From a virus (taxonomy: Duplodnaviria > Heunggongvirae > Uroviricota > Caudoviricetes), in IMG/VR virus record IMGVR_UViG_2711768166_000002: 32,271 nt of DNA; one strand, written 5' to 3'. Of the stretch, positions 25,753-31,035 are shown in pieces. How positions within the stretch are numbered: the first letter of the stretch is position 1; each line of letters begins with the position of its first letter. The position numbers were made by a program, and so were the translations under genes. Below the pieces are notes generated by a model. That model did no database searches. It was given only the letters and a program-made list of their open reading frames with translations, and was not told where the DNA came from.

Positions 25753-26403
25753 ATGAAAACTCAATTGATGGGAGAGCGCATTCGCGCTCGGAGAAAAGAA
25801 CTCAAGATCAGGCAGGCCGCACTTGGAAAGATGGTCGGCGTGTCTAATGTTGCCATATCTCAGTGGGAACGCTCTGAGACAGAGCCAAATGGAGAGAATC
25901 TTCTCGCCCTGGCTAATGCGTTGAAGTGTTCCCCTGACTATCTGATGAAAGGAGAGGAAAGTCTTTCAAACATTGCCTATCACAGTAGGCATGATCCAAG
26001 AGGGTCATACCCTCTGATTAGCTGGGTGAGCGCAGGATGCTGGATGGAAGCTGTAGAACCATATCATAAGCGTGCAATAGATAACTGGTACGATACAACC
26101 GTAGACTGTTCAGACGATTCGTTTTGGTTGGACGTGAAGGGAGACTCAATGACGGCTCCGGCCGGTCTCAGTATCCCTGAAGGAATGATAATACTCGTCG
26201 ATCCTGAAGTAGAGCCGCGTAACGGGAAACTGGTAGTTGCAAAGCTCGAAGGAGAAAACGAGGCAACTTTCAAGAAGTTAGTTATTGATGCAGGCAGGAA
26301 GTTTCTAAAACCACTTAACCCACAATATCCGATGATCGAGATCAACGGGAACTGCAAAATCATCGGCGTAGTTGTCGATGCAAAACTAGCAAACCTTCCA
26401 TAA
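25753..26403 (+). CDS. c2: C2 prophage repressor (P22 immC type, LexA-like autocleavage domain)
   Basis: 216 aa, MKTQLMGERIRARRKELKIRQAALGKMVGVSNVAISQWERSETEPNGENLLALANALKCSPDYL..., near-identical to P22 C2 as recalled. Confidence 0.95.
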   Translation: MKTQLMGERIRARRKELKIRQAALGKMVGVSNVAISQWERSETEPNGENLLALANALKCSPDYLMKGEESLSNIAYHSRHDPRGSYPLISWVSAGCWMEAVEPYHKRAIDNWYDTTVDCSDDSFWLDVKGDSMTAPAGLSIPEGMIILVDPEVEPRNGKLVVAKLEGENEATFKKLVIDAGRKFLKPLNPQYPMIEINGNCKIIGVVVDAKLANLP

Positions 26404-26717: not shown

Positions 26718-27017
26718 ATGACAGTAGTCATTACATATCTGGCTGACGATAACGCCAGAAATCGCCGCAGAGCACGCAGACAGGCTCAACGTGAACAGGC
26801 AATGCAAGAGCAGCGACTGGCGCGAAAAATTGCGCTAAAGCTCTCTGGTTGCGTCAGAGCAGATAAAGCAGCATCGCTCGGAAGCCTTCGCTGCAAGAAG
26901 GCAGAAGAAGTCGAGCGTAAACAGAACCGTATTTACTACCGCAAGCCACGCAGTGAAATGGGTGTGACTTGTGTTGGTCGCCAGAAAATGAAATTAGGCA
27001 GCAAACCACTTATTTGA
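26718..27017 (+). CDS. N: Antiterminator N
   Basis: 99 aa. N-terminal Arg-rich motif NARNRRRARRQAQRE; C-terminus RIYYRKPRSEMGVTCVGRQKMKLGSKPLI resembles the lambda/phage 21 N C-terminus as recalled. Confidence 0.85.
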   Translation: MTVVITYLADDNARNRRRARRQAQREQAMQEQRLARKIALKLSGCVRADKAASLGSLRCKKAEEVERKQNRIYYRKPRSEMGVTCVGRQKMKLGSKPLI

Positions 27018-27025
27018 GGTGATAT

Positions 27026-27289
27026 ATGGACAAGAAAATTAAATCATTGAAGCCAGGAATTGTTATCAGAGACATAAGCGGTTATTACGATACAGATACA
27101 TATGATATTTTATATGTGCATGCAGATGGAAAATGTCAGTATTCGAACGACATTTTTAATAATAAAGGTGATGCCGAAATTGCTGCCACCACAGTTAATA
27201 AAGAGTTAGTAGCTAATGAGTCGTGGGATTATTTTATGCCATCATCCACTTCTATGAACTGGAAAGTGGTTTTGTACATTCCATCATAA
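27026..27289 (+). CDS. Hypothetical AT-rich accessory protein (87 aa) in the ral/sieB slot
   Basis: ORF track; visibly AT-rich; no recognisable family. Confidence 0.55.
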   Translation: MDKKIKSLKPGIVIRDISGYYDTDTYDILYVHADGKCQYSNDIFNNKGDAEIAATTVNKELVANESWDYFMPSSTSMNWKVVLYIPS

Positions 27290-27330: not shown

Positions 27331-27356
27331 AGGCCGCATAGTCGGCCTTCTTTTGG
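27331..27356 (+). terminator. Intrinsic terminator between the two accessory genes
   Basis: Stem aggccg/cggcct with loop catagt followed by tcttttgg. Confidence 0.6.
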
Positions 27357-27402: not shown

Positions 27403-27873
27403 ATGACAAAATCATGGAGCGTACCTTTTCCTGAATCAGAAACTGAACATGATGGAATGCCTGTTTTCTGGAGATTCCAAGCGACAGTTGAAGAAGATGG
27501 GATCAAAATATTCGCACTTCAATATATAGCTTTTCATCAGACAGAGCATTATGCATGGTTGGTTCCTGCGCATTGGATTGTTAATTTTAAACCAGCACCA
27601 AATCAGTGGTTACAGGAATGGAAACAAAGGAGAAATAGATATGCAATTAAGAAAGTAGCAAAAAATGCAGAAAGATCTTTTGCATTCCCAACGAAGAAAC
27701 TTGCCATTGAAAGTTTATTGCGCCGGAAGAAATACCATTTGATGCGAATCAAACAAGATTTAGCTGTTGTATCAACTCTTGTTGATGGGATGAAGAATAT
27801 TGATACATCAACACCAGATATTGAATATAACTTTGGACACAACCAAGAAACAGAAAATTGGGTGTTTTATTAG
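27403..27873 (+). CDS. Hypothetical AT-rich accessory protein (156 aa), Trp/His-rich N-terminal half and basic C-terminal half
   Basis: ORF track; same translation-initiation context as the preceding gene; no recognisable family. Confidence 0.6.
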   Translation: MTKSWSVPFPESETEHDGMPVFWRFQATVEEDGIKIFALQYIAFHQTEHYAWLVPAHWIVNFKPAPNQWLQEWKQRRNRYAIKKVAKNAERSFAFPTKKLAIESLLRRKKYHLMRIKQDLAVVSTLVDGMKNIDTSTPDIEYNFGHNQETENWVFY

Positions 27874-27977
27874 TACGAATAAGCACTGTGTATTCATTCC
27901 AACGAGTGAATACACGGAGCAATGTCGCTCGTAACTAAACAGGAGCCGACTTGTTCTGATTATTGGAAATCTTCTTT

Positions 27978-28003
27978 GCCCTCCAATGTGAGGGCGATTT
28001 TTT
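27978..28003 (+). terminator. Intrinsic terminator after the 156-aa gene
   Basis: Stem gccctc/gagggc with loop caatgt followed by gatttttt. Confidence 0.6.
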
Positions 28004-28015
28004 GATGGAGGATAT

Positions 28016-28984
28016 ATGAGTGAAGTAACAGATTTAGTTGTTATTGAAAAAGCAAATGCAATGACTGTATTTCAGTCTGCCGACCAGATTGAAGAAATCC
28101 TTCAAAAGGTTGAACGTGAAGTTATGTCCTTTGTGCCTGATATCACAACGGCAAAGGGCAGAAAGGAGATCGCTTCTCTGGCGTATAAAGTTGCGCAGAC
28201 GAAAACATATCTCGATGGTCTTGGCAAAGACCTTGTTGCTGAACTGAAGGAAATTCCAAAGCTAATTGATGCCAACCGCAAGACAGTGCGCGATCGCCTT
28301 GATGAACTGAAAGCCAAGGCGCGCCAGCCTCTTACTGATTATGAGGAAGAACAGGCGCGGATTAAAGCCGAAGAAGAAGCTAAGGCAGCAGCTGAAGCTC
28401 TCGCAAAGCAAATTGAGTCTGACCATGAAATAGCGATTTTGATGGATCGCGAATTTGACCGCCAAAGAGAAGAGGCAAGACTCAAAGCGGAGCAGGAAAA
28501 GCGAGAGCATGAAGAACGCTTACAAAGAGAAGCTGAAGAGAAAGCCAGAGCTGAAGCCGAAGCAAAGGCAAAAGCCGAAATTGAAGCAGCAGCAAGGCGA
28601 GAAGCAGAAGCTAAGGCCGCAGCGGAACGTGCAGAGCGTGAACGCATTGAAGCCGAGCAACGAGCACAGCGCGAAGCAAAAGAGGCAGCAGAACGAGCTG
28701 AAAGAGAAAAGCAGGCGGCAATTGAAGCAGAACGCCGAAAAGCACAGGAGGAGGCTGAACGAATCCGGCGCGAGGCTGAAGCAAAAGAGCAAGCCAGAAT
28801 AGCAGAAGAAAAAAGAATCAAGGACGAAGAAGAGCGTAGAGCAAAGGATAAAGCTCACCGGAAAGAAGTAAATAACAAAATACTTGCTGACCTTATCAAG
28901 GTTGGCGCACCAGAAGATGTTGCTAAAAATATCATAACAGCCATCGTAAAAGGCGAAGTATTCGCAACAAAAATAACCTACTAA
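28016..28984 (+). CDS. Coiled-coil protein with a long Ala/Glu/Lys/Arg-rich low-complexity central region (TolA-domain-II-like composition)
   Basis: 322 aa. GGAGG RBS. Central region of about 175 aa is AEAKAKAEIEAAARREAEAKAAAERAERERIEAEQRAQREAKEAAERAEREKQ-like repeats. Confidence 0.65.
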   Translation: MSEVTDLVVIEKANAMTVFQSADQIEEILQKVEREVMSFVPDITTAKGRKEIASLAYKVAQTKTYLDGLGKDLVAELKEIPKLIDANRKTVRDRLDELKAKARQPLTDYEEEQARIKAEEEAKAAAEALAKQIESDHEIAILMDREFDRQREEARLKAEQEKREHEERLQREAEEKARAEAEAKAKAEIEAAARREAEAKAAAERAERERIEAEQRAQREAKEAAERAEREKQAAIEAERRKAQEEAERIRREAEAKEQARIAEEKRIKDEEERRAKDKAHRKEVNNKILADLIKVGAPEDVAKNIITAIVKGEVFATKITY

Positions 28985-29008: not shown

Positions 29009-29140
29009 ATGATTTACGCAATCGCGGGAGGCGCTCGCATGGGTGCCTTCCAATTAAATGAATCTTTACTTGAACGAATCACCCGTAAATTACGTGACGG
29101 ATGGAAAAGAGTTGAGGTCTTATTATGCGCAATGAAATAG
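29009..29140 (+). CDS. cIII: CIII (FtsH/HflB protease inhibitor), 43 aa
   Basis: Hand translation MIYAIAGGARMGAFQLNESLLERITRKLRDGWKRVEVLLCAMK; the core SLLERITRKLRDGWKR matches lambda CIII as recalled. AAGGA RBS. Confidence 0.8.
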   Translation: MIYAIAGGARMGAFQLNESLLERITRKLRDGWKRVEVLLCAMK

Positions 29141-29277
29141 CCATTAATCACCAGATGCTTCGTGCTGCACAGAACAAAGCAGTAATAGCCAGATTTATTG
29201 GTGATTCAAAAATGTGGTTTGAAGCAAATAAAGCGATGAAATCAGCTATCAACCTTCCGTGGTATCGCAGGAAATGA
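29125..29277 (+). CDS. kil: Kil-like host division inhibitor (50 aa)
   Basis: Hand translation MRNEIAINHQMLRAAQNKAVIARFIGDSKMWFEANKAMKSAINLPWYRRK; the IARFIGDSKMWFEA motif resembles lambda Kil as recalled. cIII-kil order as in lambda. Confidence 0.6.
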   Translation: MRNEIAINHQMLRAAQNKAVIARFIGDSKMWFEANKAMKSAINLPWYRRK

Positions 29278-29358
29278 GTTTTACAGATAACTGGTCAGAC
29301 GAAGAATTCATTCGTCAGATGAACAAAATGCTCAATCAGCACAAAGAACAGGAGAAAG

Positions 29359-29670
29359 ATGATGATTCTGACTCTGAATGATAAGCGTGAAATATCGCAA
29401 ATAATCGCAAGTTTTACTGATGAAGATTACGAACGAATCAACAGTGAAGTTGATCGTCTCTGCAAACGTTGCGACCCAATAAGCGAAATGCTTCGCTCAT
29501 ATAAACCAGATGAACACACTAAGGACGCTATCGACTGGCTGGAAGATGATGACTGTAACTATCAGGAAAAAGCCGCTGAATGGTTCTGGGATGCAATAAC
29601 CGAAAGAGTTAAGGCTGAATATGCCTTCGCAATATTCAAACGCAGACACATTTTTGGAGAAGCTGCATGA
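29359..29670 (+). CDS. Hypothetical acidic protein (103 aa) immediately upstream of recT; possible anti-RecBCD (Abc2-like) by position only
   Basis: ORF track; synteny only. Confidence 0.5.
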   Translation: MMILTLNDKREISQIIASFTDEDYERINSEVDRLCKRCDPISEMLRSYKPDEHTKDAIDWLEDDDCNYQEKAAEWFWDAITERVKAEYAFAIFKRRHIFGEAA

Positions 29671-30569
29671 GCAATATCGTTGAATTCGTTAAACAGCAGG
29701 AGCAGTTATTCTGCGGAGCATTGACTGAACAGACGGTGACATGGGCTAAGGAAAGCCAGTTTGCAATTCAGTATTTCCAGAAAAACGATTACCTGGCTAA
29801 AACAGCACTGGCAAATCCAACCAGCGCACAGAACGCCATCATCAATGTTGCGGCGATCGGCATCACCTTAAACCCGGCCAGCAAACTGGCTTATCTGGTT
29901 CCTCGCGACGGCATGGTGTGCCTTGATATCAGTTACATGGGATTACTTCATCTTGCGCAATCGACAGGATCAATTAAGTGGGGGCAATGCAAACTGGTGT
30001 ACTCAAACGACACCTATGAATCAAATGGCCTTGATTCAGCACCAACCCACAAATACAACGCATTTGGTGAGCGAGGCTCTATTGTTGGAGGTTATTGCAC
30101 GGTTAAAACAGCAGATGGTGACTACCTGACTGAAGAAATGAGTCTGGCAGAAATTAAAGCTGTGGAAGCAACGAGCAAGGCAAAGAATGGACCGTGGAAA
30201 ACATTCTGGGAAGAGATGGCGCGTAAAACAATAGTTAAACGCGCCAGCAAATACTGGCCTAAAGCCCAGCGACTGGATAATGCCATTCACCTTCTTAACG
30301 AAGATGAAGGTATGCATCAGGAACCAGTTATGCCGCACAAATCAGAGGAAGATATCCGCGAAGATGAACGGAAACGCCAGCAGGAAATAATGGATAAAGC
30401 ACAACTTCTTTGCGATGAAATGGCTCAGGCAGAAAACATGGATGATTTGAAGCGATATTTTGCAGAAGCATATCGCCTGACATCTGGAATGAAATTGCAG
30501 CAGAACGTACAAGCCATTTACGCAGAATGCAAAGCGAAACTGGAGGTTGCCAGTGAGCAAACTGTATGA
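29667..30569 (+). CDS. recT: RecT-family single-strand annealing recombinase
   Basis: 300 aa. Motifs ASKLAYLVP and GPWKTFWEEMARKTIVKRASKYWP match RecT (GPWVTHWEEMAKKTAIRRLFKYLP) as recalled. Confidence 0.9.
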   Translation: MSNIVEFVKQQEQLFCGALTEQTVTWAKESQFAIQYFQKNDYLAKTALANPTSAQNAIINVAAIGITLNPASKLAYLVPRDGMVCLDISYMGLLHLAQSTGSIKWGQCKLVYSNDTYESNGLDSAPTHKYNAFGERGSIVGGYCTVKTADGDYLTEEMSLAEIKAVEATSKAKNGPWKTFWEEMARKTIVKRASKYWPKAQRLDNAIHLLNEDEGMHQEPVMPHKSEEDIREDERKRQQEIMDKAQLLCDEMAQAENMDDLKRYFAEAYRLTSGMKLQQNVQAIYAECKAKLEVASEQTV

Positions 30570-31035
30570 AATTGCCAATGAATACGCAAAATTGATGGAT
30601 TCAGATTTAGAACCAGAGATGATTGCTGACACAATAGAAGGCATGGAAGGAGAATTTACCGATAAAATAGAGCAACTTCTTTCCGTCATTAAAAATGAAT
30701 CTGGTTATGCTGAACGCCTCAAGGAAGAGGCAAAGTCGCTGAATGAGCGAGCCGCAGTAATTCAAAATAAGATTGACAGCATCAAATCATATATAGCGTC
30801 ATCGCTTGAAATGGTTGGCAAGAAAAAGATTAGAGCAGGTATTCACCAGGTAACAATCCGCAAACCGTCAGAAACTGTAGAAATCATCGACTCAAGCGCC
30901 CTTCCTCCTGAATACGTTGAGTTCGAAACGACAATTAAAGCCGACAAGTTGGCAATCAAGCACCAACTAAAAGCAGGAATAAATATCCCCGGCGCTCAAC
31001 TCAAGGTTGGGAAACCTTCACTTCTTATCAAATAA
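30547..31035 (+). CDS. Sipho_Gp157-family protein (recombination-module accessory)
   Basis: Pattern KLYEIANEYAKLMD...GKKKIRAGIHQVTIRKPSETVEIID...LPPEYVEF...DKLAIKHQLKAGINIPGAQL fits the Gp157 family. Likely GTG start at 30553 with GGAGG 6 nt upstream. Confidence 0.7.
   Translation: MPVSKLYEIANEYAKLMDSDLEPEMIADTIEGMEGEFTDKIEQLLSVIKNESGYAERLKEEAKSLNERAAVIQNKIDSIKSYIASSLEMVGKKKIRAGIHQVTIRKPSETVEIIDSSALPPEYVEFETTIKADKLAIKHQLKAGINIPGAQLKVGKPSLLIK

Follow-up and report, generated by a model that had tools for sequence, protein, structure and literature searches.

Phage recombination modules of the Red, RecET, Erf, Sak and Sak4 types are the basis of recombineering and drive phage mosaicism. The recombinases of such modules are flanked by small accessory genes, including those for lambda Gam, Mu Gam, Sipho_Gp157 and P22 Arf/Abc. 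In Firmicutes phages, genes encoding DUF1351, Mu-Gam-like, DUF2483 or Sipho_Gp157 proteins immediately precede erf, sak4 or recT (PMC8093625). The DUF1351 family (PF07083; phrog_674) consists of mostly helical proteins of about 270 aa with no assigned function, the genes for which adjoin erf, sak4, recT or red-beta (PMC8093625). Here we describe another family, phrog_1376, the genes of which nearly always lie beside DNA-recombination genes; its members thus probably assist in phage recombination, a role that had gone unrecognised.

The family member analysed here is encoded in the pL operon of an Escherichia coli lambdoid prophage, within a window (the whole stretch of DNA that was analysed) of 32,271 nucleotides. 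In agreement with the initial annotation, an ORF of 322 aa with an ATG start occupies positions 28016..28984 of the plus strand, between N and cIII, and is preceded by a terminator-like hairpin (27976..27997, plus strand; 8 bp stem with 5 GC pairs, followed by a T-run) and by a GGAGG ribosome-binding site, read directly from the sequence, 4 nt 5' of the ATG (28007..28011, plus strand). No sigma-70-like promoter was found directly upstream of the CDS, and transcription past the hairpin presumably needs N antitermination. The gene order in the window is cI (25753-26403), N (26718-27017), two small ORFs, the 322-aa CDS, cIII (29009-29140, plus strand), kil (29125-29277, plus strand) and the gene for a RecT-family single-strand annealing protein (SSAP; 29667..30569, plus strand; Pfam RecT, 2.5e-33), which is the recombination module linked to the phrog_1376 family in this prophage; a Sipho_Gp157 protein (phrog_253, 'Mu Gam-like end protection'; Pfam 2.5e-38) is encoded at 30547..31035 on the plus strand. 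The coding strand is markedly purine-rich, with an AT skew of up to 0.74, and no Rfam RNA families were matched in the window. The assignment of the gene to the ea10 position holds insofar as it resides in the N-to-cIII slot, which is filled by ea10/ral in lambda and by gene 17 in P22, but is loose, given that some relatives carry an ea10, ral or gene-17 homologue in addition to this gene.

The 322-aa protein matches the phrog_1376 HMM over its full length (residues 1-322, E=1.5e-110), and the distant homologues P0213, P0269, P0330 and P0337 also hit this PHROG. The N-terminal profile matches 5,670 protein clusters (at 50% identity) at E<=1e-3, and 530 of the 5,426 complete E. coli genomes (about 10%) carry the gene, Shiga-toxin phages included; such numbers indicate that the ORF is real rather than a chance occurrence. 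Scans of the protein against Pfam (E<=1) and NCBIfam yield no relevant match, so that the homology detected is to phrog_1376, a family without an assigned function, and not to any characterised family. Searches of the literature for the PHROG identifier, for TolA-like prophage proteins and for accessory genes of SSAP modules found no paper on this family, which also goes unmentioned in papers on Sak4 of HK620 and on the SSAPs of Pseudomonas.

In the databases, proteins of this family carry a name that points in a different direction: PGAP calls the protein 'cell envelope biogenesis protein TolA', and other NCBI and JGI names are 'TolA' and 'colicin import membrane protein'. Together with the A/E/K-rich helix, which does resemble TolA domain II in composition, as initially noted, with no evidence of homology, these names are what speaks for a TolA-like envelope-spanning protein or exclusion factor. 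Several other observations speak against such a role, which we consider extremely improbable. No signal peptide or transmembrane segment is detectable (Kyte-Doolittle hydropathy averaged over 19 residues peaks at 0.99, at residue 293, with no such segment at the N-terminus; the family median of this maximum is 0.97), and the TolA C-terminal domain III was found neither by Pfam (E<=1) nor by NCBIfam. Furthermore, TolA is encoded in the tolQRA-tolB-pal cluster, whereas the 322-aa gene belongs to a prophage pL operon with a recombination module. With the membrane anchor, domain III and the tol-pal context all missing, membership in the TolA family is refuted, and the 'TolA' name reflects composition only and is misleading; judging from its sequence, the protein is best regarded as cytoplasmic. 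Accordingly, of the two functions suggested in the initial annotation, the envelope-spanning exclusion factor is disfavoured by the lack of a signal peptide or transmembrane segment, of a TolA domain and of any match among the PADLOC defence systems, whereas the recombination-module accessory is strongly favoured by the conserved gene neighbourhood described below.

The three-part layout that had been proposed from the sequence, namely an N-terminal head, a long A/E/K/R region and a C-terminal domain, is borne out. Residues 1-105 are of mixed composition, residues 106-284 comprise 28% E, 25% A, 16% R and 10% K, and residues 285-322 are rich in hydrophobics. The AlphaFold2 model (pLDDT 82) consists of helices 12-20 and 22-38, a loop (39-45), a continuous helix spanning residues 46-295 and a final helix (300-311), and AlphaFold predicts the same layout for a natural 197-aa homologue. 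The conserved head (aa 1-120; 28016..28375, plus strand), in which hydrophobics are spaced regularly at 3-4 residues, is predicted to consist of two short helices packed against the start of the long helix; its net charge is only about +2. Among 78 species-level homologues, the invariant residues are T45, K47, G48, R49, I52, S54, K63 and P105, and the most conserved motif, P-D-x-x-T-x-K-G-R (aa 41-49; 28136..28162, plus strand), falls in the loop that precedes the long helix. The conserved C-terminal domain (aa 285-322; 28868..28981, plus strand) contains an H-R-K-x-V-N-N motif, a helix-loop-helix and an I-x-Y-COOH tail. This domain produces matches to RuvA/Hef helix-hairpin-helix (HhH) and UBA-like profiles (E 0.012-0.8; 0.012-0.016 for the HhH-like ones), along with scattered Pfam noise; these matches are weak, and we do not take an HhH or UBA identity as established. 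Sequence searches of the PDB with the full protein or the N-head profile retrieve coiled-coil noise only, and fold searches retrieve generic long helices only. The gene is internally mosaic, its N, middle and C parts differing in history. Conservation is higher at both ends than in between: compared with the Enterobacter homologue, the N and C parts are 93% and 92% identical, respectively, and the middle part 64%. Overall, the protein is best interpreted as soluble, non-enzymatic and rod-like.

The central region was initially described as a coiled coil, and this description is not borne out for the ER/K(A)-rich core (aa 150-284; 28463..28867, plus strand), which is part of the predicted continuous helix. 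The core is 61% charged, contains 58 pairs of opposite charges at the i/i+4 spacing compared to 23-32 at other spacings, and lacks a classic heptad seam, with bulky hydrophobics occupying 12-25% of the heptad a/d positions across residues 153-264. This combination of charge density, i/i+4 excess and near-absent hydrophobic seam fits an ER/K single alpha-helix (SAH), as far as sequence features can indicate. The same features are characteristic of the family: a segment of at least 60 aa rich in A/E/K/R/Q/D is present in 76 of the 77 species-level homologues (median, 127 aa), with a median i/i+4 charge-pair excess of about 2-fold and 9% bulky hydrophobics. Natural insertions and deletions (+11, -13, -16, -22, -26, -32, -47 and -77 aa) occur at arbitrary positions and mostly are not multiples of 7, which fits a register-free single helix rather than a heptad coiled coil or an antiparallel hairpin; the hairpin fold is rejected because the natural deletions are one-sided. 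At 0.15 nm per residue, the core spacer (aa ~150-284) would extend for about 20 nm and the whole predicted helix for about 37 nm. An Ala-based homo-oligomeric coiled coil may still form, the AlphaFold models being those of monomers, and the a/d occupancy of 0.62-0.75 in residues 55-110 implies that the head region could oligomerise.

The variation in length among homologues is confined to the helix, all differences falling within aa ~120-284. The variation anticipated in the initial annotation does exist (E. coli homologues range from 245 to 333 aa, with the indels inside the helix) but is rare, with 74 of the 78 close copies being exactly 322 aa long. Similarly, the DNA is repetitive as proposed, in that direct repeats are present, but only weakly so: the repeats are imperfect (13-37 nt, 65-92% identity), with TRF scores of 36-46. 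Two deletions coincide exactly with direct repeats. In repeat family D1 (28370..28627, plus strand), two 27-nt copies at 28370-28396 and 28601-28627 share 89% identity and are offset by 231 nt, exactly the length lost from the 245-aa variant P0099 (77 aa). In family D2 (28607..28709, plus strand), the offset between the copies at 28607-28643 and 28673-28709 is 66 nt, matching the 22 aa that are missing from P0005, the 300-aa variant of phage HK633. A contingency locus with frequent slippage is nevertheless rejected because 74 of the 78 copies are equal in length.

To characterise the genomic neighbourhood of the family, we performed a census of loci from 80 species of Enterobacterales, Pseudomonas, Aeromonas, Burkholderiales, Xanthomonadales, Alphaproteobacteria, Planctomycetes and Acidobacteria, in which every ORF was scanned with HMMs and neighbour labels were confirmed by Pfam (ERF, RecT, YqaJ, DUF3799, SSB and AAA_24/Sak4). 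An SSAP, exonuclease or SSB gene is located within 3 kb at 75 of the 80 loci, with no recombination gene nearby at the remaining 5; one metagenomic homologue adjoins a terminase. At 41 of the 80 loci, a recombination gene on the same strand starts between -60 and +30 nt from the stop codon of the family gene, often about 10 nt past it. The typical operon order is the phrog_1376 gene first, then the genes for the single-strand annealing protein, exonuclease and SSB. Independent metagenomic loci (with X denoting the family gene) show the arrangements Rad52-X-exonuclease-SSB, ERF-YqaJ...X, X-DUF3799 and YqaJ-X, and operons of the form X-ERF-YqaJ-SSB occur in Pseudomonas. In enterobacterial phages generally, as in the window, cIII, kil and small ORFs intervene between the gene and the recombinase.

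The linkage persists through swapping of the recombinase module. Among 80 E. coli prophage copies with N-termini that are 98-100% identical, the downstream recombinase, with the ERF, Rad52 and Sak4 types told apart by Pfam, is ERF in 34 cases, Rad52 (with SSB) in 33, RecT (with Gp157) in 4 and Sak4 in no fewer than 4. Near-identical copies thus serve four unrelated recombinase families, so that the partner of the protein probably is not a family-specific surface of the recombinase. Given these observations, we favour, with some confidence, a role of the protein in phage recombination and the processing of DNA ends, as an accessory or a tether. Under this scheme, a partner would be bound at each of the conserved ends, the candidates being DNA (or an intermediate of recombination), a host factor that all these modules have in common, or both, and the rigid, charged helix would keep the partners at a fixed distance. 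Weighing against a role in recombination are the cIII, kil and small ORFs that separate the gene from the recombinase in enterobacterial phages, its location in a region typically filled by accessory or exclusion genes, the 5 census loci and the metagenomic locus that depart from the pattern, and the low net charge of the head.

A more specific and distinctly more speculative version of the tether, which we put forward as possible rather than likely, is that the family is an unrecognised fourth core component of phage SSA recombination, beside the recombinase, exonuclease and SSB, in which a head that binds DNA or recombination intermediates would be joined by a 20-37 nm single-helix tether to an I-x-Y/F-COOH tail that would dock in the pockets for the C-terminal tip of SSB. 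The SSB tip ends in ...I-P-F-COOH, and docking in its pockets would explain how one protein could serve ERF, Rad52, RecT and Sak4 modules.

The independence from the SSAP family is also what would be expected of a factor that targets a host nuclease, and the gene sits upstream of the SSAP gene, as Gam does in lambda, with Mu-Gam-like, Gp157 or DUF1351 genes occupying that slot in Firmicutes phages (PMC8093625). Such features are compatible with a DNA-end protection or anti-nuclease factor, which would resemble lambda Gam, Mu Gam or P22 Abc in function and shield DNA ends or block RecBCD instead of acting as a tether; we regard this as unlikely. In most of the 80 E. coli loci, abc2, gam or Gp157 accompanies the gene, a pattern of co-occurrence and not of replacement.

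The census also bears on the possibility that the gene is an accessory 'moron' with no connection to recombination, the product of which would act in anti-defence, superinfection exclusion or host takeover, and which would simply be carried along in the early-left operon. The N-cIII region is variable and usually houses accessory or exclusion genes (P22 gene 17, ral, sieB and ea10 share it), the two small ORFs beside the 322-aa gene are low-GC orphans with their own terminators, and the internal mosaicism of the gene also speaks for this scenario. In its size and in its placement, which is kept from phylum to phylum and often leaves about 10 nt before the SSAP gene, the family differs from sporadic anti-defence genes; moreover, PADLOC defence-system models give no match at E<=0.01, and E. 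coli copies show strong conservation of both length and sequence. We consider this scenario quite unlikely.

Recombination modules adjoin replication genes, for example, those for DnaB-type helicases downstream, and this arrangement, along with the succession of a head and a long Ala/charged helix, is reminiscent of KfrA-like or replisome-organiser-like long-helix DNA-binding proteins, some of which, the Firmicutes replisome organisers, also have low-complexity helical tails (PMC8093625). A replication or segregation scaffold that organises phage DNA nevertheless appears improbable because Pfam reveals no similarity to KfrA_N or replisome-organiser domains and the nearest conserved neighbours are SSAP, exonuclease and SSB genes, not those for initiators.

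With the accessory or tethering role as the favoured interpretation, the phrog_1376 protein becomes a concrete candidate for those accessory functions in phage recombination that still lack an explanation. The family, which numbers more than 5,000 clusters (at 50% identity) and lacks a Pfam entry, keeps its place at the head of such modules in several bacterial phyla, and recognition of the protein as a module component would correct a widespread 'TolA' mis-annotation. In Pseudomonas and other hosts, the gene is only about 10 nt upstream of recombinases from families (ERF, RecT) that are also employed for recombineering, which makes it a candidate for improving the technique there. If the family is indeed a fourth core component, co-expression could raise the efficiency of recombineering or its portability between hosts.

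With respect to the helix, ER/K SAH domains are known from the lever extensions of myosins VI and X and from caldesmon. Compared to these classical SAHs, the phage protein is far more Ala-rich (26%), and the monomeric helix is a prediction; the resemblance does not imply homology. The protein would be an unusual instance of a long ER/K single-helix spacer in a bacterial virus, and we found no earlier description of one in a recombination-module protein.

With respect to the module, lambda Gam, Mu Gam, Sipho_Gp157 and P22 Arf/Abc share with the 322-aa protein the operon neighbourhood and the independence from the recombinase family, but are about half its size, and the hhalign probabilities against lambda Gam and Mu Gam/Gp157 (0.1-0.3%) reveal no sequence relation. 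The closest counterpart seems to be DUF1351, the gene for which likewise adjoins that of a phage single-strand annealing protein. PHROGs lists the two families separately, and DUF1351 proteins lack the TxKGR loop, the 100-170-aa ER/K helix and the I-x-Y C-terminal domain of phrog_1376 proteins. The Pfam DUF1351 model does not match the full protein (E<=1), nine N-domains (E<=10) or ten distant family members (E<=0.1), whereas a true DUF1351 protein, the positive control, scores 2.2e-18 in the same tool; a PDB sequence search with a DUF1351 protein returned coiled-coil noise only, and no DUF1351 gene was seen at the place examined in Staphylococcus phage phi11. In profile-profile comparison, hhalign aligns the N-head with a diverse 9-sequence DUF1351 profile with a probability of 38% (P=3.4e-4, 36 columns; controls, 0.1-0.3%), and this probability rises from 2% to 14% and then to 38% as the DUF1351 profile is diversified. 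The aligned motif, GKxLxAExKxxxKxIDxERK...PLxEWE, belongs to the most conserved helix of the N-head. The profile comparison is suggestive of homology between the phrog_1376 family and DUF1351, and, by analogy of gene position, the slot of the phrog_1376 gene is best read as equivalent to that of DUF1351 in Firmicutes phages.

The gene for the 322-aa protein, confirmed as an ORF at 28016..28984 on the plus strand, belongs to a lambdoid, P22-like E. coli prophage with the plus strand gene order cI (Peptidase_S24/HTH), N, an 87-aa ORF, a 156-aa ORF, the gene in question, cIII, kil, two small ORFs, RecT and Sipho_Gp157. In keeping with the ea10 position given in the initial annotation, it lies between N and cIII, in the slot that is filled by ea10/ral in lambda and by gene 17 in P22. 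A terminator-like hairpin followed by a T-run (27976-27997) and a GGAGG ribosome-binding site (28007-28011, 4 nt 5' of the ATG) precede the gene; the scan of the upstream region in the window detected no sigma-70-like promoter directly 5' of it. Given this lack of a promoter and the presence of the hairpin, expression should depend on N-antiterminated transcription from pL.

Context analysis of 80 loci (one genome per species; Gamma-, Beta- and Alphaproteobacteria, Planctomycetes, Acidobacteria and others), in which ORFs were called, neighbours clustered and the main clusters labelled by Pfam, with correction for antisense shadow ORFs in high-GC genomes, revealed conserved operon linkage with genes for single-strand annealing proteins, exonucleases and SSB. 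Among the main neighbour clusters, ERF-superfamily annealing proteins usually occupy position +1, YqaJ exonucleases usually +2 and SSB +3 or +4; the others are DUF3799 PD-(D/E)XK nucleases, RecT and AAA_24/Sak4. A recombination gene from these clusters is found within 3 kb in 75 of the 80 loci; in 41/80, such a gene starts on the same strand between -60 and +30 nt from the stop codon, typically 8-11 nt after it. Independent metagenomic contigs repeat this linkage, with one exception. In E. coli, near-identical copies of the gene are followed, after cIII-kil, by ERF (34 loci), a Rad52-type protein plus SSB (33 loci), RecT plus Gp157 (4 loci) or Sak4 (at least 4 loci). Because four recombinase families occur behind near-identical copies, the association persists through module exchange and is independent of the recombinase family, as would be expected of a functional partner; this suggests that the protein requires no recombinase surface peculiar to one family. 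The role of a recombination accessory, one of the functions initially considered, is supported by these observations. In four loci (L129, L130, L132 and L134), the usual place of the recombinase just 3' of the gene (+1; +2 in L130) is taken by phrog_10048 proteins of 270-306 aa that match no Pfam family and are directly followed by a YqaJ exonuclease in L130 and L134; these may represent an unrecognised family of single-strand annealing proteins.

In the window, RecT (29667-30569) overlaps by 23 nt the Sipho_Gp157 gene (30547-31035, 'Mu Gam-like end protection'), whose longest ORF begins with TTG, a pairing that is a minority module (4/80 E. coli prophage loci carrying the gene). The 87-aa and 156-aa orphan ORFs between N and the gene (27026-27289, phrog_33140, and 27403-27873, phrog_1636, both 'unknown function') look like moron inserts: their GC content is 0.34-0.39, compared with 0.44-0.54 nearby, and each has a terminator-like hairpin on its 3' side (27331-27348 and 27976-27997, respectively). 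Of 80 related prophage loci in E. coli, only about 20 carry the 156-aa gene. Just 3' of kil, a 40-aa ORF (29259-29381) contains 'WSDEEFI', resembling 'FSDEEFI' in the Erf cofactor Arf of P22, which likewise sits between kil and the recombinase; the pairwise BLASTP alignment spans 12 residues, with an E-value no better than 0.007.

The protein matches no Pfam family at E<=1, has no meaningful match in NCBIfam and no matching PADLOC model, and is assigned to phrog_1376 ('unknown function'). It is a typical member of a large family, catalogued but uncharacterised: a profile of the 121 N-terminal residues matched 5,670 clusters (50% identity representatives) at E<=1e-3, among them 5,097 at E<=1e-10, with a typical member length of 300-400 aa. 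A total of 330 phage records, many of them of Stx-converting phages, contain the gene, as do 530/5,426 complete E. coli genomes. Public names range from 'hypothetical protein' and 'coiled-coil domain-containing protein' to 'cell envelope biogenesis protein TolA', 'TolA protein' and 'colicin import membrane protein', the latter three assigned by pipelines including PGAP. The low-complexity composition accounts for these three names, and composition is the only defining feature of TolA that the protein displays. No hydrophobic segment was detected (maximum 19-residue Kyte-Doolittle mean 0.99), so the protein should be cytoplasmic; the TolA-like envelope protein initially entertained as an option finds no support, and the 'TolA' annotation in E. 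coli genomes and phage records is systematically misleading.

The three segments originally recognised are apparent both in composition and in an AlphaFold2 model built with a 20-sequence alignment (mean pLDDT 82). Residues 1-105 are of ordinary composition, residues 106-284 consist of 28% Glu, 25% Ala, 16% Arg and 10% Lys, and Ile, Val, Lys and Ala abound in residues 285-322; the model comprises helices 12-20 and 22-38, a loop (39-45), an uninterrupted helix 46-295, a short helix 300-311 and a low-confidence tail. For a natural Klebsiella homologue of 197 aa, the same layout is predicted, with a shorter helix. The initial interpretation of the core as a coiled coil is probably incorrect. Of residues 150-284, 61% are charged, with 58 opposite-charge i/i+4 pairs compared to 23-32 at other spacings, and bulky hydrophobic residues occupy 12-25% of the a/d positions in the best heptad register across 153-264, versus 62-75% across 55-110. 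Such a pattern is characteristic of an ER/K single alpha-helix, as in the SAH domains of myosins VI and X, and the core probably adopts this form; the head region could still oligomerise.

The pattern of length variation points in the same direction. E. coli homologues of 245, 275, 290, 296, 300, 306, 309, 321 and 333 aa exist alongside the 197-aa Klebsiella protein, and the differences among homologues are in-frame indels (+11, -13, -16, -22, -26, -32, -47, -77), all inside the helix. Since these sizes mostly break any heptad register and the indels are one-sided, they argue against a coiled coil that depends on register and against an antiparallel hairpin, respectively. Two deletions coincide exactly with direct repeats in the window: 231 nt separate the D1 copies (28370 and 28601), matching the 77 aa absent from homologue P0099, and 66 nt separate the D2 copies (28607 and 28673), matching the 22 aa absent from the phage HK633 homologue; hence repeat-mediated deletion and duplication do occur. 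The suggestion of repetitive DNA of variable length is thus upheld only in part: the DNA is weakly repetitive (TRF scores 36-46), and 74 of the 78 complete close copies in IMG/VR encode exactly 322 aa, so the gene displays occasional variation under length conservation and is no hypervariable locus.

Soluble and tripartite, the protein combines this charge-patterned, indel-tolerant long helix with two ends that are more conserved than the middle, the three parts having different histories. Head residues T45, K47, G48, R49, I52, S54, K63 and P105 are invariant in 78 species-level sequences, and the A/E/K/R-rich helix is present in 76/77 homologues (longest segment, median 127 aa). The C-terminal consensus of the family is H-R-x-x-I-N...G...A-K...I-A-x-G-x-I-P-x-x-x-I-x-Y; the family-wide I-x-[Y/F]-COOH end (last 11 codons at 28949-28981) has Ile at -3 in 66/77 and a final Tyr or Phe in 74/77 homologues. 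The 40-aa C-terminal domains of enterobacterial homologues (P0115, P0152, L101, L105 and L158 compared with the window) fall into two unrelated-looking types, ...NNKILADLIKVGA.EDVAK.IITAIVKGEVFATKITY and ...VG..IVKAL...TSLTR.QAIEVL..LKD..IPHT.I.Y., neither of which tracks a single recombinase family. Heads joined to different types can be nearly identical (in P0115, 89% identity in the head versus 18% at the C-terminus), which points to domain shuffling within the gene.

The protein probably acts in phage recombination or DNA-end processing, and the helix, which would be about 37 nm in its entirety at 0.15 nm per residue, may serve as a spacer or tether that would hold two binding modules some 20 nm apart. 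The partners could be DNA or a shared host factor. The conserved TxKGR loop at the helix N-terminus would be compatible with DNA binding, as would the weak HhH-like matches of the C-terminal domain (E 0.012-0.016); the conserved I-x-Y/F-COOH end could instead contact a host factor. It bears a superficial likeness to the SSB tip ...I-P-F-COOH, which is recognised by RecT proteins (bioRxiv 10.1101/2020.04.14.041095); an SSB-tip-like tail docking in SSB-tail pockets is a lead, not a finding. A role in recombination is a sharply testable hypothesis of practical relevance to recombineering.

The Pfam DUF1351 model did not match the family. When the N-terminal head profile was compared by hhalign with DUF1351 profiles of rising diversity, the probability rose steadily, from 2% with a single sequence to 14% with an Enterococcus-only profile and 38% (P=3.4e-4) after addition of Staphylococcus, Listeria and Lacticaseibacillus phages; the controls yielded 0.3% (Gp157) and 0.1% (lambda Gam). 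The alignment always fell on one motif, GKxLxAExKxxxKxIDxERK...PLxEWE. Judged from these profiles, homology is plausible but unproven and, even if true, would name no function because, to our knowledge, none is known for DUF1351. The gene does not stand in for anti-RecBCD genes, as abc2, gam or Gp157 accompanies it in most E. coli loci. New here are the linkage of the whole family to recombination modules in phages of Gram-negative bacteria, the single-helix reading of the core and the possible tie to DUF1351. According to a survey of Firmicutes phages, erf, sak4 or recT is directly preceded there by a DUF1351, Mu-Gam-like, DUF2483 or Sipho_Gp157 gene, and this shared position has been argued to imply analogous functions (PMC8093625); in Gram-negative phages, the same position is taken by the family described here.
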